A DNA stretch of 64,000 nucleotides, from the sequence record PZ386957.1; one strand, given 5' to 3'. Every line of letters begins with the position of its first letter. The stretch's first letter is position 1. The DNA is from a phage. The notes beneath the pieces are model-generated. The model saw only the letters and a program-made list of their open reading frames with translations. It made no database searches and had not been told where the DNA came from. Below are positions 7,258 through 33,489 of the stretch, one piece after another. The position numbers were made by a program, and so were the translations under genes.

Positions 7258-7527
7258 TCAATAATCATAAATCGCCCTCAGTTCTTTATAGCCTCCAATG
7301 TGCTCGTTGTCAATGAATATCTGGGGGTATACAAATCGGAGGCTGTCTTTACCCAACCTCCCCGCCAGTTCTTCAATCATATCACGGTCGGGAATAATGT
7401 CAACCCCGACCTGCTTGAATACTGGTTTAAGTGTATACGGAATACCCAGATCATCCAGTAGCTTCATTGCACTAATACAACCATAACAATGATAAGCCTC
7501 TTTCGGTATACCGTATATCTCGATCAT
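7258..7527 (-). CDS. nrdH: Glutaredoxin-like protein (NrdH-like)
   Basis: 89 aa; CYGC redox motif near N-terminus; YPQIF...HIGGY glutaredoxin fold signature; T4 nrdH position. Confidence 0.75.
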   Translation of the reverse strand: MIEIYGIPKEAYHCYGCISAMKLLDDLGIPYTLKPVFKQVGVDIIPDRDMIEELAGRLGKDSLRFVYPQIFIDNEHIGGYKELRAIYDY

Positions 7528-9857: not shown

Positions 9858-10367
9858 TCAAATAATTTTCACTGGAATACTATTAACAATCTTGTATTGT
9901 ACTTGATTGTCAGACCCCCGCCACGGCTTCTTCGTTGGCATATCTTTAATATAACGCCCATCGATGAACATGTCAACTGATTCTACAATTTTTCTTTGCT
10001 CATCATTCAATTGGTCAAGGGTATAACCGGACCATAGCCAAATATCTTTATTTGGCATCCATGATTTTACTTCATCGATGATCCGCTGTACACCCTTTAA
10101 ATTGCGTTTATACAGTGGATCACCACCTAAGAATGTTAGCCCCTGAATAAAATCAGGTCTAAGCAGATCCAGAATCAATCCCATTGTATCATCGGTGAAT
10201 GGTTCCCCGTTCTTAGGATTGAGTAGGCTAGCATTAAAGCAACCATCACATGCGTGTGAACATCCGGTAACGTAAAGGGAGACTCTCACTCCCTCACCGT
10301 TAACCATATCACAATCTTTAATATCGGCATAGCGTAGTTTGCCGTATGTATCAGAACTCATATTCAA
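9858..10367 (-). CDS. nrdG: Anaerobic ribonucleotide reductase activating protein NrdG (radical SAM)
   Basis: 169 aa; CSHACDGC (CxxxCxxC) radical-SAM cluster motif; adjacent to nrdD. Confidence 0.9.
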   Translation of the reverse strand: MNMSSDTYGKLRYADIKDCDMVNGEGVRVSLYVTGCSHACDGCFNASLLNPKNGEPFTDDTMGLILDLLRPDFIQGLTFLGGDPLYKRNLKGVQRIIDEVKSWMPNKDIWLWSGYTLDQLNDEQRKIVESVDMFIDGRYIKDMPTKKPWRGSDNQVQYKIVNSIPVKII

Positions 10368-11762: not shown

Positions 11763-13625
11763 TTACATGTGCTTAACGCGGTTTACCATCTCGGAGTGTT
11801 TCCCGTGGTTAAATGGACGCAGATCAACAGATCCAAGATATCCACTAACGCGGCGGATAACATTCATCTTTTCCAGATTGTCATTGCCGCAATCAGGGCA
11901 AACAAAACCAGACTCGGTCGCTCTCATTTCCTTATTAGATCCGCATACATGACATACATCAGAAGGAGTATTAACACCGAAGTAGTGCAATTTATCCATT
12001 GCATAGTCTACTACAGTTTCAAGACCTTTCAGGTTGTTTTTCATGTCTGGGAACTCAACATAAGAGATCATGCCACCGGACGCCAGACAGTGATAATCTT
12101 TCTCAAAGTCGATTTTCTCAAACGGTGTAACCTTCCGGTCTACGTCAAGGTGGAATGAGTTGGTGTACCAGTCTTTATCGGTAGCACCCTTAACAATACC
12201 AAATTGCTCTCGGTCCAGTCGATTAAATCGATAGCAAAGGCTCTCGGCTGGCGTACCGTAAAGACTAAAACCAAGTCCGGTTTCGTCCTTCCATTTTTCA
12301 GTATAATGACGCAAGATCTTAAGAATATGTTTACCGTATCGCTGCGCATCTTCCGAATCAAACGGATGAACACCAAACAGGACGCTCAATACCTCATGTA
12401 AACCAATATACCCAAGAGAGATACTAGCGCGACCATCTTTCAGCACTTCCAAAATTTCATCGTTTTGATGAATACGGAAAAATGCACCTTCGGTATACAG
12501 TACAGGGGCAACATTGGCTTTAGCACCTTTTAAAGCGTCTACGCGACTCATGAGAGCATCAAAACAAATAGGCATACGATTAGCTAGCTCTTGTTCGAAT
12601 AGCTCAATTCTGCGCATTACAGACGCTTTACCAGCACGACGCGCGGCAATAAGGGCAATACGCGGAAGATTCAGAGTCACAACACCCAAGTTATTACGTC
12701 CGTCTAATACTTCTTCGCCTTTCTCATTATGCCACACACCCAGGAAGCTACGACAACCCATCGGGCTAACCGGAACACTAGATCCGGTGATACTACGGTT
12801 ATTCTTCGCAGAGATATAATCAGGGTAAAGACGCTTACTAGAACATTCCAATGCAAGTTGCTTAATGTCGTAGTTCGGATCTTCCGGTTTAAGGTTTAAT
12901 CCTTCTTCTAAGAACATCACCAGCTTAGGAAACACCGGAGTTATACCATCTTTACCTAAACCTTTAGTTCGAACTTTCAGGATCGCTTTCTGAATCAGTT
13001 TTTCTTCCCAGCTAGTACCCATACCAAAGGTTAAAGTCACAAAAGGCGTTTGACCGTTGGTGGAGAACAAAGTGTTGATTTCATATTCCAACGCTTGATA
13101 CCCGTCTAAAGTTTCTTTTTCTGTCTTCTCTTGTGCATAGAGAGTATCAGCTTTGATTCCGTAGGTTTCGGCATCAGCAAGGTGTTTATGATATGTTTTC
13201 TCAACATACGGTGCTAACACCTGATCGATGTTTGCAATTGTGGTCCCGCCATATTGATGACTTGCCACCTGTGCGATAATTTGAGCGGTTACAGCACAAG
13301 CAACGCCGATTGATCTCGGACTTTCGATTTGTGCACTACCCAATTTAAAACCATTCTCTAACATGTCCTTGAGATTAACAAGACAGCAGTTAGTAAACGG
13401 CATAGCGGGTGCATAATCCATATCATGATAATGAATATCACCGTCTACATGCGCTTTATAGATGTGCTCAGGTAACACGGTTTTAGCAATCTGTTTAGAC
13501 ACAGCGCCAGCAATCAGATCTCGACGTGTCGGGAATGTTCGCGCGTCTTTGTTCGCGTTCTCTTTGCTTACTTCGTTTTCTTTACCCGTTGCAATCTCTG
13601 TAATGTCTTTGATTAGTTTTTCCAT
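11763..13625 (-). CDS. nrdD: Anaerobic ribonucleoside-triphosphate reductase NrdD (class III, glycyl radical)
   Basis: 620 aa; C-terminal CPDCG zinc motif and glycyl-radical motif RRVSGYLG; uninterrupted ORF. Confidence 0.92.
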   Translation of the reverse strand: MEKLIKDITEIATGKENEVSKENANKDARTFPTRRDLIAGAVSKQIAKTVLPEHIYKAHVDGDIHYHDMDYAPAMPFTNCCLVNLKDMLENGFKLGSAQIESPRSIGVACAVTAQIIAQVASHQYGGTTIANIDQVLAPYVEKTYHKHLADAETYGIKADTLYAQEKTEKETLDGYQALEYEINTLFSTNGQTPFVTLTFGMGTSWEEKLIQKAILKVRTKGLGKDGITPVFPKLVMFLEEGLNLKPEDPNYDIKQLALECSSKRLYPDYISAKNNRSITGSSVPVSPMGCRSFLGVWHNEKGEEVLDGRNNLGVVTLNLPRIALIAARRAGKASVMRRIELFEQELANRMPICFDALMSRVDALKGAKANVAPVLYTEGAFFRIHQNDEILEVLKDGRASISLGYIGLHEVLSVLFGVHPFDSEDAQRYGKHILKILRHYTEKWKDETGLGFSLYGTPAESLCYRFNRLDREQFGIVKGATDKDWYTNSFHLDVDRKVTPFEKIDFEKDYHCLASGGMISYVEFPDMKNNLKGLETVVDYAMDKLHYFGVNTPSDVCHVCGSNKEMRATESGFVCPDCGNDNLEKMNVIRRVSGYLGSVDLRPFNHGKHSEMVNRVKHM

Positions 13626-16868: not shown

Positions 16869-17162
16869 TTAACCATGAATCTTGTTTTTGACTACAAAGG
16901 ATCGGAACTCATCAAAGCCACCAATATAATCACCATCATAGAAAATCTGCGGCATGGTGGCAATAACTTCTACCCCTGCGCGATCCTGAATATCGGCAAT
17001 GATAGAATCAATCTTTACAGGGCGACCGTTTTCGTCCACACCATCATTAACCGGAATGTAGATGTAAGGGATCTTACGCGCTTCACAAAGGCGCTTTGCA
17101 TTCTGGCAATACTTACAGTTGTAACCTTCAAAACCAAAAATTTCTACCATGTTATACCTCAA
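16869..17162 (-). CDS. nrdC: Thioredoxin/glutaredoxin NrdC
   Basis: CKYCQNAKRL active site and MPQIF..IGGFD, matching T4 NrdC pattern. Confidence 0.85.
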   Translation of the reverse strand: MRYNMVEIFGFEGYNCKYCQNAKRLCEARKIPYIYIPVNDGVDENGRPVKIDSIIADIQDRAGVEVIATMPQIFYDGDYIGGFDEFRSFVVKNKIHG

Positions 17163-21990: not shown

Positions 21991-22809
21991 TTACACGCGA
22001 GCACCGTAGATCGTGCCAACTTTAGTCCATGTTGGGGCATTACCAGTAACAGCTTTACCAGCAGCACCACCAGGCCACGGAACACCAGCGCGACCAGTAC
22101 CATCATACCATGAGTCGTTAGCCTTAGCACCTGCTTGACCAGCGTCACCACCGTTACCAGCATAATATATATTACCGTTATACGATCCTCTACCCGGCGC
22201 GGTATATGTAGCAGCGGTTGACCCTATTTCCATGTTGGAATATGCACCAGCCGCACCATAAGGACGACCACCACCACCACCCATTGACAACCCAATGATC
22301 GGATAATATGAGTAATAAGCACCGCCACCGCCACCGCCACCGCCAGCGATGACACCATTATTTGTGATGCGTAGACGTGTACCGATACCATTATTGATAG
22401 CAGTCCCGCCAGCTTGTCCAGGACCAGTGCTGGAATTAGTACCGCCATCACCACCCTTACCACCACGACCCCAAACATGGACACCTGGGTTAATGTTTAA
22501 TGTAATATACTCATTAGCAAGATCGCTAGGAAAATCGAGACACGGAACACTAGCAGAATGAGAAACAATATCCCCGGTAATGGTAATTACTACCGGAGTA
22601 GACCCGTGTGATCTTAGATAACTAATCAAAGTATCTTTATTGTAACTATGGTTAGACCCAATACTATAATAAACCTCTTTAGAACGTCCCACCATCGCAC
22701 TCATCCAAGCCGGACGACCTAAGCGTACAGCTTCCATTGCGGCACTCATCCACCGTTGGCCTGTTTCATTAACGGCAGATGATCCTACCCATCCAGAAGA
22801 TATTGCCAT
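21991..22809 (-). CDS. Glycine-rich protein (N-terminal globular region + Gly/Tyr-rich low-complexity region)
   Basis: 272 aa; runs GGGGGGGG, GGKGGDGG, MGGGGGRPYGAAG; correct strand and terminator; alt-frame ORFs over it are GC artefacts. Confidence 0.6.
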   Translation of the reverse strand: MAISSGWVGSSAVNETGQRWMSAAMEAVRLGRPAWMSAMVGRSKEVYYSIGSNHSYNKDTLISYLRSHGSTPVVITITGDIVSHSASVPCLDFPSDLANEYITLNINPGVHVWGRGGKGGDGGTNSSTGPGQAGGTAINNGIGTRLRITNNGVIAGGGGGGGGAYYSYYPIIGLSMGGGGGRPYGAAGAYSNMEIGSTAATYTAPGRGSYNGNIYYAGNGGDAGQAGAKANDSWYDGTGRAGVPWPGGAAGKAVTGNAPTWTKVGTIYGARV

Positions 22810-24443: not shown

Positions 24444-26591
24444 TTATTCTCGTCCATTTGTATAGTAGTGTTTGAATCGCCCATAGCCAGTTTCAATAGA
24501 CATATCTTTCTGTCGGACAATCGCCCAATAGCCATTGCATGAATCTTGCAAATACAGATCCTTACCTTTTAGGAACTCGTTAAAGATCGTAATCTGCCAA
24601 TCATAATAGACGGCATCAGCGAGACTATCCATCCAACCATGTGGATCATCCATCAGTTCGACAAGCTCATCGATAACCCAATATGGACACGGGCTAAATT
24701 TACCTTTACTAAAATCATTGAACAAGGTAACAAGTTTAACTTCCGGTCGCGGTTCATCCGGCTGCACAGGTCGTTTATTAACCACAACCTGTACATATTT
24801 CGTATACCCGATGATTTCGCCGGAGTCAAGAGTATCGTTATTGTTCTTATCTGCATAAGCCACAAAACGATAAACACCGGAATCATTTATTGTTGCATTA
24901 GCTTTACGGTAAATCGGCACGCGAGAATCAGCAATAGGTAATTTAACACCAGCTTTGCTAAACTCATAGGTAGGTACATAATCAGCCGGAGGCTTCAACA
25001 TGGTAGCCTCAAGAACAAGCGGTTCACCTTCCGTAATCTGTACCGGATGCGGACCATCAAATTCCATATTAGGCACTACCTCAACATGGTAGGTAGCGCG
25101 TGCTGCAATATCGTAATCGGTATGCGCACTATATGGATCTTTACTCGGACTATCGCGGTATTCATGCGACCAGATACCGTTATGGTCTCGGTCTGCGGAA
25201 TCAGTGATCTTATACTCTTTCGCTTCAATAGGCAAATCTGCGACTTTAACATCATTTTTCAGAATTACTAATGAACGCGTTTGAGTCGGATCACCGCTTG
25301 CTGGCGGTTCTGGATCGACGATCTTAATTACAATCGGTTCACCAATCTCAATATTACGATAATCATATTCTTTATCGTAAATGTCAAGCATACGGCGGTC
25401 ATAGAACAAAGGACGTCCGGTCGGTGTTCTCTGCGGATCATCATCACGCGCGGGAGCCACCAACAGTTGAAGTGCTACGCTATCGTCATATTGCAATTCA
25501 TTAAGCGTAATGCGGTCATATCCCGGATCACCGTATTTCTTGCTTTGGAGTTGCTTACCGCCTAGCATCCACGTAAAGTAAACATTATTTGCAAGCATAC
25601 CATAATGGCGGTTCCATGAGTTATCCGCTGGTAATACTGGCATATCAAAGTTTACTTCCGATCCAGAAGGATAACGAAATTCGATTGCTGCAAAGTCATT
25701 ACGGAAAAATTCGTTTTCCTTAACTTTGACAGTAAATCGGTGTCGCTGCCCTTCAATGAATGATTCACCAGCACCAGGTCCATTAACCACTTTATAGGAG
25801 CGAACGCAAGCTACATATTCACCTGCATCATTTTCGGTAGCATGTTTGGTTGCATAGAGTGTTTTGTTGGTAGACTCATAAACAAGAGTACCGTCGCCAC
25901 GCTCTAAGCGATACCTTACAATGGTATGCTCTGCGTCATTAGGCGCATCATCTTCTACCGTGAAATAAGCTGGTGCATATTTCTGGACATTGAATACTGC
26001 GGGATTTTCCTTAATATCGGCAACAAACGGATAAACAAATTTAACGTCGCCGTGTTCGTCGCTCAATTCCATTCGGTAATTACCGGAAAATTCAGGCCAT
26101 GCAAATTTTGCAATTTTAAATTCACGATGGTCTAATCCCAGATCACCATCAATGGAATCAACGAGGCCATTATTATAATACAGGTCAACCGAAATATTAG
26201 CCGGAATATTACTACGGAAAACAATTTTTGCTTTAATTTCATCACCAATATCAAAAGACGTTGGAGGATGAACATATTCGACAAAGACATTATCGAATAA
26301 ACTAAAGGTAAAGTTTTCCGTGCCGATATCTACGGATTCGCCAGAAAAATTTTCATCATCTTGCGCATAACCACGAAGGTTAACAGACCATCCGGTTTTA
26401 TCCTCTTCTTTCACTGAATCCAATACATAGGAAGGAGTTGCAGTAGTCGCAATGACCTTATTGTCTTTCTTCCACGTAAAACCCTTTTTAGGTTTAGTTG
26501 GTTCAGGGGATTCCCCAGCAAGGGAACAAGCGAAAGTATGAGGAAGCCAAATGGTAGTATTAACGCTAGTATCTTTATTTTCTACTGGCAT
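24444..26591 (-). CDS. Large protein with Ig-like repeat signatures
   Basis: 715 aa; repeated D.G.Y.C motifs (DAGEYVACV, DSGVYRFVA) typical of Ig-like beta-sandwich domains. Confidence 0.6.
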   Translation of the reverse strand: MPVENKDTSVNTTIWLPHTFACSLAGESPEPTKPKKGFTWKKDNKVIATTATPSYVLDSVKEEDKTGWSVNLRGYAQDDENFSGESVDIGTENFTFSLFDNVFVEYVHPPTSFDIGDEIKAKIVFRSNIPANISVDLYYNNGLVDSIDGDLGLDHREFKIAKFAWPEFSGNYRMELSDEHGDVKFVYPFVADIKENPAVFNVQKYAPAYFTVEDDAPNDAEHTIVRYRLERGDGTLVYESTNKTLYATKHATENDAGEYVACVRSYKVVNGPGAGESFIEGQRHRFTVKVKENEFFRNDFAAIEFRYPSGSEVNFDMPVLPADNSWNRHYGMLANNVYFTWMLGGKQLQSKKYGDPGYDRITLNELQYDDSVALQLLVAPARDDDPQRTPTGRPLFYDRRMLDIYDKEYDYRNIEIGEPIVIKIVDPEPPASGDPTQTRSLVILKNDVKVADLPIEAKEYKITDSADRDHNGIWSHEYRDSPSKDPYSAHTDYDIAARATYHVEVVPNMEFDGPHPVQITEGEPLVLEATMLKPPADYVPTYEFSKAGVKLPIADSRVPIYRKANATINDSGVYRFVAYADKNNNDTLDSGEIIGYTKYVQVVVNKRPVQPDEPRPEVKLVTLFNDFSKGKFSPCPYWVIDELVELMDDPHGWMDSLADAVYYDWQITIFNEFLKGKDLYLQDSCNGYWAIVRQKDMSIETGYGRFKHYYTNGRE

Positions 26592-29964: not shown

Positions 29965-30429
29965 TTATTGGTCCACTTTCAAAACAACCGCCGACATTTT
30001 ACCAGCCAGTCGTTTTGGATTCTCTATAATCATTCGGCAGCATAGACCGTGATACGGTTTACCCTCTTCGATTAGATCTACTGTCATCCCGATCCACATG
30101 TTATTGTCAGTGATTTCTAATCGATTAGGTCGGTCTTCCATTTTCAGGAAGTCGAAGATCTCTGGCAAACGAGTTTCAATCTTATTGAATAGTTCCATCG
30201 TTTTATGTTCATCAATATGACGATCTGTTAGTCGATCAATCATGTGTGGACTAAAACGAATGAAAATATATTCACCGTAACCATCATTCAAGCATTTTTC
30301 TTTAATCTGCGCGTTAGTCTTACGCATTTCGGTTTCGAAGAATCTGCGCAGCTTGCTACGGCGAACGTGTACGTTAATTGTTTCCATTTTATTCTCCTTT
30401 CTTAAACAAATTGTGAAGCCAGTATACAA
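29965..30429 (-). CDS. Hypothetical protein
   Basis: 154-aa ORF; likely start at internal METINVHV. Confidence 0.5.
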   Translation of the reverse strand: MYTGFTICLRKENKMETINVHVRRSKLRRFFETEMRKTNAQIKEKCLNDGYGEYIFIRFSPHMIDRLTDRHIDEHKTMELFNKIETRLPEIFDFLKMEDRPNRLEITDNNMWIGMTVDLIEEGKPYHGLCCRMIIENPKRLAGKMSAVVLKVDQ

Positions 30430-31215: not shown

Positions 31216-31914
31216 CTAACCACGTGTATAGTGTTCCAGAACAACGGTCAGATGAATATCTTCTAATAAATCTTTCCAAAAGTCAACATATGGTTCTTCC
31301 GGCATACCGTTTTTCTTTGCCTCTTCACGCGCGAGTTTAACACGCTCGTAGAGATCTTTCAATTCTTCCCGCACATCATCAAAGGTTCTTTCGCCCATCT
31401 TACATGCTAAGATAGAATCACGTTGAGATAGCGGGAATTGTAGATCACCTGTCTGATAGATTTCAAGTAGCTGATAACCAACACGCAGAGCATGAGAAAG
31501 ATCTTTCCAGTTACTGAAATACTTTTCAGATTTGGCTACCTGTTTCTTGAGATAACCAGACAAACCCCACATCCCAACATGATAGAATTTATCGCGATGT
31601 GTTCGGATGTATTCCCATTCTCTGGAGGATTCAATCAACATGTTACTAGGCGCGTGCACCATGTCAATAGCGCCAATATCACCTTTACATGCCAGATTGA
31701 TAAACCGTTTTAGACTGAACATATTAACGTCAATATCGTCTTTGGTGTTCTTGATACCTTGACCGCTAGTGCTTTGGTCATAGTGTTCTTTCATCGATCC
31801 TAAGATAATTTCTTTAGCAGTCGGAACAAAGATACCACGATAATCTTTATCGGAATTTTCAGTATTAAGGCCGTATAAGTGAGATCCGAAGACCATTTTA
31901 ACCATTGTATGCAT
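31216..31914 (-). CDS. Pol-beta superfamily nucleotidyltransferase
   Basis: 232 aa; N-terminal GSHLYGLNTENSDKDYRGIFV (GS-x9-D-x-D nucleotidyltransferase signature). Confidence 0.6.
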   Translation of the reverse strand: MHTMVKMVFGSHLYGLNTENSDKDYRGIFVPTAKEIILGSMKEHYDQSTSGQGIKNTKDDIDVNMFSLKRFINLACKGDIGAIDMVHAPSNMLIESSREWEYIRTHRDKFYHVGMWGLSGYLKKQVAKSEKYFSNWKDLSHALRVGYQLLEIYQTGDLQFPLSQRDSILACKMGERTFDDVREELKDLYERVKLAREEAKKNGMPEEPYVDFWKDLLEDIHLTVVLEHYTRG

Positions 31915-31956
31915 AATTAAACCCTCAGTTGATTAAGAGATTGCATCATATCATCA

Positions 31957-31989
31957 TAAAAAGAAAAAGCCAACCCTTTCGGATTGGCT
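31957..31989 (-). terminator. Intrinsic terminator after the GrcA-like gene
   Basis: AGCCAATCC-GAAA-GGGTTGGCT then TTTTTCTTTTT. Confidence 0.75.
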
Positions 31990-31995
31990 TAGAGT

Positions 31996-32412
31996 TTACA
32001 TTGATTCCGTAAAGGTTCGAGTAATAATATCTAATTGTTGCTCACGAGTTAAGCTATTGAAGCGGCAAGCATAGCCCGAAATTCGTACAGTTAGCGACGG
32101 GTATTTTTCAGGATTTTCCAGCGCATCCAGAAGAAGATCGCGATTCATTACGTTGACATTGATATGTTGAGCACCGCGATTAGTTCCGATCTCACCGTCA
32201 ACCATCACCGAACGGAAGCTAGTTGTGTGCAGTGCCAGCGAATCTACGTCTTCGGCAGTGATCACATGGTCTTCTGCGAAAGTCTTACTAACAATTACTT
32301 TAGCACCGATCAGTGCTTTCGGTTCTGATACCAGAATCATAGGCGCGAAGTGTCCACCAATAACAGTACCTTTATGCTCACCTTTCATGATTTGAATTGC
32401 TTTAAATTCCAT
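31996..32412 (-). CDS. Autonomous glycyl radical cofactor (GrcA/YfiD-like)
   Basis: 138 aa; C-terminal GAQHINVNV..PEKYPSLTVRISGYACRFNSLTREQQLDIITRTFTESM closely parallels E. coli GrcA glycyl-radical motif. Confidence 0.8.
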   Translation of the reverse strand: MEFKAIQIMKGEHKGTVIGGHFAPMILVSEPKALIGAKVIVSKTFAEDHVITAEDVDSLALHTTSFRSVMVDGEIGTNRGAQHINVNVMNRDLLLDALENPEKYPSLTVRISGYACRFNSLTREQQLDIITRTFTESM

Positions 32413-32547
32413 AATTCACCTCTTATAGATCAGGACGTTCGTCATTAATTTTACCAACCAAAACCCCATAGAGTTTATCAGGTTGGACTTTACGATTCTT
32501 TTTAATTGTAGCACGAAATCGACGAGCTACGCTATCTTTATTTTTCA

Positions 32548-33039: not shown

Positions 33040-33099
33040 AATAAGTCTCCAGTAAACGGGGAGAGATCCTTAGATTGTCTCCCCATTGATGGTTAATAA

Positions 33100-33489
33100 T
33101 TATTTTGGATCTGGGTAAGCAGAACTCAGCAATTCAAAATGCACACCGTCTTTGAATGCCAAAAAATCCCCGCCCCATTTAATCGGAATATTCAATTCCT
33201 TACTAGCTTGTTTAAATGCATCAGCGATCATTCGGTAATATTTCATGTTCCATGTATCCTTATCTTTCGGATACGCTACAACATCAACCGCGAAGCCATG
33301 AAGATGGCGAGATTTCATAGTCTTAGACTTACCTTCCGCAAAATATTTCTTCTGCGTTTCCAGACTGCGCACACCTTCCGTAATGCCAAAATCTACAGGA
33401 GTTAATTCAAGTGCGCGAGTCGCCACCTTAACCAGATCTGGATGCACACCAACAAGTCGGTCTTTACTTCTTTGAGATAATTTAAACAT
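33100..33489 (-). CDS. Peptidase M15-type cell-wall hydrolase (putative endolysin, L-Ala-D-Glu peptidase-like)
   Basis: 129 aa; zinc-peptidase motifs SRHLHGFAVD and DGVHFE. Confidence 0.7.
   Translation of the reverse strand: MFKLSQRSKDRLVGVHPDLVKVATRALELTPVDFGITEGVRSLETQKKYFAEGKSKTMKSRHLHGFAVDVVAYPKDKDTWNMKYYRMIADAFKQASKELNIPIKWGGDFLAFKDGVHFELLSSAYPDPK

Follow-up and report, generated by a model that had tools for sequence, protein, structure and literature searches.

We analysed a stretch of 64,000 nucleotides of phage DNA from the sequence record PZ386957.1 (hereafter the window), focusing on the gene at positions 31996-32412, which an earlier note on the bare sequence had described as a GrcA/YfiD-like autonomous glycyl-radical cofactor. 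The window comes from a Krischvirus, an RB49-like T4 relative of the Straboviridae and a phage of E. coli. We observed that the gene is a coding sequence of 138 amino acids on the minus strand, with a ribosome-binding site on its 5' side and a terminator on its 3' side. From the comparisons described below, we consider it likely that this is the Krischvirus version of the spare part for pyruvate formate-lyase (PFL) that is called vs.6 (Y06I) in T4 and GrcA (YfiD) in bacteria. That Y06I is vs.6 is our own assignment, made from size and map position. The features of the locus are as follows:

31996..32412, minus strand: coding sequence of the Krischvirus vs.6 orthologue, a GrcA/YfiD-like autonomous glycyl-radical cofactor (138 amino acids, ATG start)
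32212..32412, minus strand: codons 1-67, the N-terminal half, homologous to the N-half of GrcA and nearly invariant in Krischviruses
31999..32211, minus strand: codons 68-138, a variable linker and the glycyl-radical module; a hypervariable mosaic cassette, here with the rare 'W' allele
32074..32076, minus strand: Gly113 codon; this glycine is predicted to bear the radical (counterpart of G734 in PflB and of G102 in GrcA); an invariant alignment column
32065..32067, minus strand: codon of Cys116, three residues past the radical glycine (G+3), placed by the alignment of homologues
32417..32422, minus strand: Shine-Dalgarno sequence GAGGTG, 4 nt 5' of the ATG, read directly from the sequence
31967..31990, minus strand: intrinsic terminator (10-bp stem, then a T-tract) from a terminator scan; it ends the transcription unit
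31915..31966, minus strand: empty insertion site for an HNH homing endonuclease, in the gap from the terminator to the nrdC.11 start, from a comparison of this interval with relatives
31973..31945, minus strand: sigma-70-like promoter for nrdC.11, from a promoter scan

The GAGGTG sequence was kept in all eight aligned Krischvirus loci, and the open reading frame was intact in each of the 23 Krischvirus sequences examined. The terminator hairpin begins 5 nt past the stop codon. It was kept in the Krischvirus alignment (DNA conservation picks up again at this point), and a terminator is annotated at the equivalent spot in Makalu_001, TB34, G2248 and G37-3. The late promoter sequence TATAAATA was not seen within 4.5 kb upstream on the minus strand, and its count was not above chance. 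Sigma-70-like sites were the only promoter type seen, in a number not clearly above the expectation from shuffled sequence. The gene would be expressed early or in the middle period.

A 3-kb stretch around the gene was 91-92% identical to 59 Krischvirus genomes, including those of KFS-EC, kvi, JSE and RB49. The counterpart of the gene carries the annotation "autonomous glycyl radical cofactor" in kvi, and the name vs.6 in RB49 and JSE. The gene order in the window is endolysin (an M15 peptidase, 33100..33489), vs.8, an open reading frame of 41 amino acids, vs.6, the terminator and nrdC.11, followed further on by RegB (29965..30429), vs and tk. In RB32, a T4-type phage, the order is e, Ip4, vs.8, vs.7 and vs.6, followed further on by regB, vs.1, vs, tk.4 and, later, tk. 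The map position of the T4 vs.6 group, between the endolysin/vs.8 genes and regB, is conserved in the window. Homologues were found by tblastn in 1,579 phage records, comprising T4-like and T5-like phages with Escherichia, Salmonella, Klebsiella, Shigella, Aeromonas and others as hosts.

Family identity of the protein

The protein matched the Pfam family Gly_radical (PF01228) at E=4e-14, with 53.4 bits against a cut-off of 22.2. Among the NCBIfam models, GrcA (TIGR04365) ranked first (E=5e-31), followed by GrcA3, GrcA2 and PFL, while the match to PHROG 1209 ran from end to end (phrog_1209, E=1.8e-43; residues 3-138 against positions 1-121 of the 121-position profile). In searches of the PDB sequences, the match to PflB covered its residues 699-759 (E=2e-26), and that to GrcA/YfiD (6OWR; E=1e-24) ran over residues 37-138 of the phage protein. 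BLASTP against E. coli GrcA gave 50% identity across 104 amino acids. This homology is far beyond chance.

The radical motif of the phage protein is R110-I-S-G113-Y-A-C116-R-F, where GrcA and PflB both have RVSGYAVRF. Invariant positions in a 34-sequence alignment numbered 22 (R110, S112, G113, Y114 and A115 among them), and the G113 column was also invariant in an alignment of 36 sequences. The last 60 residues are nearly collinear with E. coli GrcA and 67% identical to it (20 of the 60 positions differ). Identity was 77% to PflB, with 14 differences that are almost all conservative, and 70% to TdcE. The residue at G+3 is Val in at least 90% of homologues and Thr in some Krischvirus alleles. 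Cys was seen at this position, among the 120 homologues listed, only in the window and in P0001 (from the Logan contigs L013 and L014). The earlier note had read the motif and the nearly collinear C-terminus from the letters, and both were borne out; the alignment with GrcA and T4 Y06I that it had proposed as a check, here made with T4-type vs.6, showed the radical glycine motif to be conserved.

Like the members of the GrcA family, which are of about 14 kDa, the protein is small and stands alone: only residues 699-759 of PflB were matched. The 10-stranded barrel of PflB and its catalytic Cys418/Cys419 are absent, and therefore the phage protein cannot be an enzyme by itself. The C-terminal domain of PflB (residues 700-759, approximately) is nevertheless the best sequence match of the module, at 77-80% and collinear to the last residue. 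The model for PFL itself (TIGR01255) was touched at positions 683-744 of 744 only, with 83 bits against a cut-off of 994, which places the protein outside that class. Since only the end of the PFL profile is matched, the label 'pyruvate formate-lyase' given to some relatives is a misnomer.

The N-terminal halves are homologous on their own. When a profile of 13 phage N-halves was compared by hhalign with a profile of 12 bacterial GrcA N-halves, with the radical module removed, the probability was 96.9% (E=1.4e-10 over 62 columns). Both halves of E. coli GrcA (6OWR) have their homologue in the phage protein, and the radical glycine and 21 further positions are shared family-wide. The two proteins differ in that the window N-half has an insertion of 12-14 residues relative to GrcA and in that the window module is nearer to PflB than to GrcA. 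In Krischviruses the N-half carries two insertions peculiar to this lineage, at residues 19-32 and 57-61 (approximately), and it is these that make the window protein 18 residues longer than T4-type vs.6.

We also predicted the structure using AlphaFold2, with the 36-sequence alignment as input. The model had a mean predicted local distance difference test (pLDDT) score of 76, with 88-94 in the C-terminal domain. Foldseek against the PDB placed YfiD 6OWR at the top (template modelling score 0.79, normalised to the target), with PFL structures next, and the C-terminal 59 residues of the model superposed on the nuclear magnetic resonance structure of YfiD and on the PFL C-terminus. Beta-strands at pLDDT 70-84 were predicted in the N-half, where residues 25-31 form an insert of low confidence; this half had no significant structural neighbour in the PDB by Foldseek. 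In YfiD, by comparison, residues 1-60 are disordered in solution (PMC8683613).

The closest known system is T4 vs.6 (Y06I_BPT4), here represented by RB32 vs.6. The two share the same two-part layout, an N-half of the form 'KAxQIxxGxHKGTI...IVSKTF.ED' followed by a PFL-type radical module, as well as the map position and PHROG 1209, and are 47% identical over the whole length (E=1e-38). They differ at G+3, which is Val in T4-type vs.6 and Cys in the window protein. T5-like phages (Demerecviridae) encode short GrcA-like proteins that also have the PFL-type module, as do the bacterial GrcA2/GrcA3, with 52-55% identity over residues 51-138. The T5-like proteins, however, lack most of the N-half, lie in the tRNA region and form a separate lineage. 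Together, the profile, fold and N-half matches indicate that the phage protein is a whole GrcA homologue, rather than a PFL fragment or a bare radical motif. The GrcA/YfiD-like identity proposed in the earlier note is upheld by the Pfam, NCBIfam, PHROG and PDB matches, the N-half homology and the fold.

Among the bacterial sequences we observed a group of 127-amino-acid proteins (P0023-P0031, P0035 and P0040) in which a GrcA N-half is joined to a C-terminal module identical to that of PflB. These come mostly from short ENA contigs, and have arisen either by gene conversion between grcA and pflB in bacteria or by chimeric assembly.

Divergent alleles of the radical module

When the two halves of the gene were searched separately, the 5' 207 nt were 94-97% identical to all 59 Krischvirus records. 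The 3' 210 nt had their best DNA match in the database in phiS, at 80.7%, with a handful of matches at 73-74%; genes of T5-like phages and E. coli tdcE came next, each at about 70%. The 5' half and both flanks were 94-100% identical among Krischviruses; for codons 1-67 the identity was 95-100% in 19 sequences and the 59 database records. Across the 19 sequences, nucleotide diversity was 0.00-0.06 over nrdC.11, the N-half, the 41-amino-acid open reading frame and vs.8, and 0.15-0.33 between 31996 and 32205, a jump of about tenfold. The edges of this divergent tract are sharp and fall at codon 67 (approximately) and at the stop codon. By the Nei-Gojobori method the synonymous divergence (dS) was 0.02-0.17 in the N-half. 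In the module it ranged from about 1 to saturated, with a ratio of nonsynonymous to synonymous divergence (dN/dS) of 0.07-0.17. The module is thus under purifying selection at the protein level, and its alleles are far older than the surrounding genome, a combination that marks replacement of alleles and not decay or hypermutation. The dN/dS of about 0.1 at saturated dS ruled out that the 3' divergence is due to relaxed constraint or to a pseudogene.

The population analysis was based on GenBank phage loci; IMG/VR gave one related locus. Approximately six recombining allele classes of the module could be distinguished, with 58-80% DNA identity and 65-85% protein identity between them:

RB49-type (majority): RB49, the IMG/VR contig, UPWr_E1, ELT4, Makalu_001, TB34, Brandy, MIZ6, Delraymugoa; no downstream endonuclease
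kvi-type (K-type 5' part and RB49-type 3' part): kvi, G2248; no downstream endonuclease
K-type: KFS-EC (no endonuclease); JSE, 011D4, Whisky (type A endonuclease)
J-type: JK32, AV108, FL04, G37-3 and five phages inferred from BLAST; type B endonuclease
P-type: phiS; a diverged type A endonuclease
W-type: the window and two Logan contigs; no downstream endonuclease

Recombination between the classes could be seen directly in kvi, where 16 consecutive informative sites of the K-type are followed by about 30 of the RB49-type, and in AV108, which has an RB49-type conversion patch of 10 sites. The W allele, including Cys116, recurred in two Logan contigs (96% identity), which stem from independent sequencing runs, and the differences from the window were spread evenly along the gene. 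This recurrence establishes it as a real circulating allele and not an error.

We further compared the module with the host genes. In RB32 vs.6 (locus L002, 3998-4360), the N-half was unrelated to grcA DNA and had a G+C content at third codon positions (GC3) of 20%. From the EGGQH codons on, the last 180 nt (approximately) were 97% identical in DNA and 100% in protein to grcA of E. coli K-12 (L009, 3067-3450), and GC3 was 46%. The 3' 185 nt of E. coli grcA were found at 95-99% in 633 phage records, and at about 88% in Klebsiella T4-like phages. By its DNA, T4-type vs.6 is a chimera with a recent copy of the host module, and the pattern suggests recurrent gene conversion by the host gene, in which the phage module tracks that of its host.

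The window module, in contrast, was 67% identical in protein to GrcA, and 62-66% identical in DNA to E. coli grcA, pflB and tdcE (62% to grcA). Its third-codon identity to these genes was near random (33-38%), and its codon usage was phage-like, with a GC3 of 36% that equals that of the phage N-half. No close donor was found in 5,426 complete E. coli genomes, where tdcE was best at 69.6-70.6%, or in 185,579 GTDB species representatives, where Firmicutes PFLs reached at most 67% protein identity. Among 5.8 billion proteins there was no close relative outside Krischvirus, identity over the module being at most 80%. These donor searches rule out a recent host capture of the W allele.

A second kind of variation was seen just downstream of the gene. 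In JSE, phiS, JK32 and AV108, an open reading frame of 175-197 amino acids is inserted right after the vs.6 terminator, and the distance from the vs.6 stop to the nrdC.11 start is 591-662 nt in these phages as against 81 nt in the window. The inserted frames (L003 890-1417, L007 713-1243, L004 857-1450, L005 859-1452) have HNH_3 and NUMOD4 domains. The insertion is carried by 13 Krischviruses at a single intergenic point, and it belongs to two unrelated lineages, of 175-176 and 197 amino acids. Type B was present in nine phages; all four that are sequenced carry the J-type module, and the other five give a 74.3% BLAST signature, the same as AV108. JSE, 011D4 and Whisky have type A, each together with a K-type module, and a third lineage, the phiS endonuclease (74% identical to type A), goes with the P-type module. 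The RB49- or kvi-type module was found in none of the eight sequenced genomes that bear an endonuclease, versus 11 of the 15 that are free of it (p is about 0.001 by a Fisher exact test worked out by hand, on genomes that are not independent).

The genes for free-standing homing endonucleases of T-even phages (Seg/Mob) travel with a form of the adjacent conserved coding sequence that resists cleavage, and the Seg and Mob families are a cause of localised marker exclusion and of the co-conversion of genes that flank them. The Krischvirus locus resembles them in the presence or absence of HNH/NUMOD4 genes at one intergenic site, in the tie between each endonuclease lineage and its own allele, and in synonymous divergence with a conserved protein. 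It differs in that the tract is one-sided and ends at the domain boundary, and in that divergent alleles occur without an endonuclease (the window, KFS-EC); the pattern is known here from sequences alone. We consider it an evenly balanced proposition that the module half is an exchangeable cassette, whose old alleles recombine within Krischvirus and are kept apart by the downstream HNH insertions. The HNH genes would probably target the conserved vs.6 coding sequence. Such homing would explain why the synonymous sites are scrambled while the protein is conserved, since resistant coding versions would be linked to the endonucleases. A more specific version of this proposal, which we put forward only tentatively, is that the radical half is a mobile allelic cassette in which HNH targeting of the glycyl-radical sequence maintains ancient alleles, with T4-type phages copying host grcA and the W allele being an endonuclease-resistant survivor. 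In that case the Cys at G+3 could alter radical stability or oxygen sensitivity.

Several observations weigh against the homing layer of the interpretation. The K-type occurs both with an endonuclease (JSE) and without one (KFS-EC), and the W allele of the window has no endonuclease gene. The divergent tract ends exactly at the domain boundary, for which homing alone is insufficient, and the genomes compared are not phylogenetically independent.

Two other accounts were weighed as well. In the first, the open reading frame is a decaying remnant without function, as its score under the NCBIfam GrcA cut-off and the high divergence of its 3' half among close relatives might suggest; but the frame is intact in 23 of 23 sequences with all motif residues invariant, the ribosome-binding site and the terminator are conserved, and the W allele is present in two independent samples. 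Given the selection signature (dN/dS of about 0.1 with saturated dS), the remnant account is effectively refuted, and we find it hardly credible. The other account, repeated conversion by host grcA, pflB or tdcE, fits the T4-type phages, with their 97% DNA identity to grcA, the GC3 jump from 20% to 46% and the matches in 633 phage records and in Klebsiella T4-like phages. The RB49-type allele, whose module is 90% identical to GrcA in protein, also speaks for it. It does not fit the window module, with its low DNA identity to the E. coli genes, its near-random third positions, its phage-like GC3 and the failure of the searches of E. coli genomes (best 70.6%), species representatives (at most 67% in protein) and the 5.8 billion proteins (at most 80%). 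We regard host conversion as an unlikely source of the divergence.

Outside the question of the module alleles, a second polymorphic gene, of 576 nt, was observed between vs.8 and the endolysin gene in phiS, JK32, JSE, TB34 and G2248 (L003 2601-3176, L004 2598-3173, L007 2391-2966, L018 2391-2966, L019 2396-2971). Its annotation reads HNH endonuclease in some cases and 'pathogenesis-related transcriptional factor and ERF protein' in others. The gene is not present in the window, where the empty site lies at about 33040-33100, and its presence or absence showed no correlation with the type of the vs.6 module.

In the T5-like phages phA11 (L033 3045-3413) and smaug (L034 919-1287), a GrcA-like gene of 122 amino acids lies in the tRNA region, and an HNH gene about 1 kb away from it is 41.6% identical to the type A protein of JSE. 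Since the tRNA region is generally full of such genes, this was not used as support.

Proposed function and the anaerobic genes of the window

Just two spare parts have been validated, YfiD and T4 Y06I (PMC8683613; Wagner et al. 2001, cited in PMC13450708), with which the earlier note's statement that T4 encodes such a protein agrees. The PFL-activating enzyme (PFL-AE) puts a radical on YfiD or T4 Y06I, and the activated protein complexes O2-cleaved PFL and restores its activity. YfiD's N-terminal half is required for PFL binding and for efficient activation (PMC8683613). In vivo, the radical passes from G102 of GrcA to C419 of PflB (PMC12338860).

By homology, the window protein probably acts in the same manner. 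In an anaerobic or micro-oxic host, O2 would cut active PflB at the Gly734 radical. The N-half of the phage protein would then bind the truncated PflB, the host activase PflA would put a radical on Gly113, and the C-terminal module would fill the place of the lost PflB C-terminus and pass the radical to Cys419. T4-like phages shut off host gene expression, and damaged PflB would therefore not be replaceable during infection. The pay-off would be adenosine triphosphate (ATP), acetyl-CoA and, in addition, formate as a reductant for the phage NrdD/NrdG, so that keeping PFL alive would feed this system as well as ATP production. Homology of both halves, the intact motif, the fold match, the synteny with T4 vs.6 and purifying selection on the module are established here. 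From these we infer PFL rescue by the W allele, and likewise that PflA would activate the protein, that it would dock into E. coli PflB in spite of substitutions at 14 of 60 positions, and that the phage would gain in fitness.

The window has the following genes for anaerobic nucleotide metabolism and its redoxins:

11763..13625, minus strand: NrdD, class III (anaerobic) ribonucleotide reductase (Pfam NRDD 1e-175, Gly_radical 4e-23)
9858..10367, minus strand: NrdG, a radical-SAM enzyme that activates NrdD (Pfam matches to Fer4_12 at 2e-43 and to Radical_SAM)
16869..17162, minus strand: NrdC-like glutaredoxin/thioredoxin
7258..7527, minus strand: NrdH-like glutaredoxin, plausible but marginal (22.6 bits against the Pfam Glutaredoxin gathering cut-off of 22.9)

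The glycyl-radical domain of NrdD is intact, with RRVSGYLGS at the C-terminus together with a zinc ribbon, and the counterpart of NrdG in kvi is annotated as the small subunit of the anaerobic nucleoside triphosphate reductase. The earlier note had listed nrdD (with an intact glycyl-radical domain), nrdG, nrdH and nrdC beside the cofactor gene. Three of these were readily located, while for nrdH a candidate was found whose score stops just short of the cut-off. Formate is the reductant of characterised class III ribonucleotide reductases and has been discussed as a cofactor of T4 NrdD (PMC4493059). The investment in anaerobic metabolism that the note had read from these genes is a reasonable inference, and it is strengthened by the fact that formate, the product of PFL, is the reductant of this class of enzyme.

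Some of the evidence weighs against a spare part of the T4 kind. The T4-type module is identical to that of host GrcA, and the window module reaches no more than 67% identity with GrcA and 77% with PflB; with 20 of its 60 residues different, the T4 experiment, carried out on a module that is 100% GrcA in protein, is not automatically transferable. The TIGR04365 score of 107.6 bits lies under the equivalog cut-off of 170 bits. T4-type vs.6 (153.3), RB49 (132.4) and JK32 (113.7) fall short as well, and so the cut-off, which E. coli GrcA passes with 234 bits, excludes the phage versions in general. An unusual Cys stands three residues past the radical glycine. Finally, neither a PFL gene nor pflA was found within the window, and the function would therefore rely wholly on host proteins.

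Could the protein be a GrcA homologue that does not rescue cleaved PflB? It might serve TdcE or inactive full-length PflB, or act as a decoy or sink that titrates PflA and redirects pyruvate flux. The identities of the module (67% to GrcA, 77% to PflB, 70% to TdcE) and its best E. coli DNA match, tdcE, leave room for such a role, as do Cys116 and Ile111, which flank the radical glycine inside the peptide recognised by PFL-AE. One study also reports GrcA acting in vivo on the full-length G734A form of PflB (PMC12338860). On the other side, nearly all of the 14 substitutions relative to PflB are conservative, and no family-invariant position is lost; the N-half, required for binding of cleaved PFL in YfiD, is homologous and strongly conserved, and T4 Y06I rescues cleaved PFL (PMC8683613). 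We therefore think a role without rescue rather improbable. The phage's own oxygen-sensitive NrdD was also considered as the enzyme to be repaired in place of host PFL, since the genes of NrdD and NrdG lie on the same strand at a distance of about 18 kb, and O2 cuts glycyl-radical enzymes, as a class, at the radical glycine (PMC8683613). However, BLASTP against the NrdD of the window gave only a five-residue match, R[IV]SGY, at E=2.4, and the module shares 77% identity with the PflB C-terminus. The NrdD type of C-terminus, a zinc ribbon followed by RVxGYLG, is not seen in the phage protein, which lacks the ribbon. The NrdD role was rejected on the BLASTP comparison, and we consider it highly improbable.

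Neighbouring genes and biological meaning

The gene next to the terminator, nrdC.11 (31216..31914, minus strand), encodes an RlaP-type nucleotidyltransferase (PF10127, 3e-14), and hence the labels 'glutaredoxin', 'thioredoxin' and 'nrdC' that it has in several relatives are wrong. Further away, a homologue of the Gp38 tail-fibre adhesin (21991..22809, minus strand; PF05268 at 1.6e-70, and Gp38_N) is placed in the early nrdC-tk 'hyperplastic' region, distant from the tail-fibre genes. It is missing at that place in kvi, and is found at 82-87% DNA identity in JK32, GEC-3S and others. An open reading frame of 715 amino acids (24444..26591, minus strand), with a weak Ig_2 match only, forms an insertion of about 2 kb relative to kvi; its counterparts in JK32, SSG23, Brandy and G2248 are about 82-84% identical in DNA.

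The gene family of the cofactor is already known from T4, and the gene is annotated in relatives; what is added here is a rare Cys allele that is not host-like, and a recombining, endonuclease-linked module. The gene call corrects the database labels 'pyruvate formate-lyase', 'glutaredoxin' and 'acetyltransferase-related'. The spare part was first described in 2001, and the phage version that was tested carries the host module verbatim. The Krischvirus alleles, including the one with Cys116, offer a natural panel for the residues that matter in activase recognition, PFL docking and oxygen sensitivity. The sharp break between the conserved and the hypervariable half would make this a clean case of selfish endonucleases shaping the coding sequence of an auxiliary metabolic gene. 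Since PFL makes the formate that is used by NrdD, the gene may link host fermentation to the supply of deoxynucleoside triphosphates for the phage in the gut.

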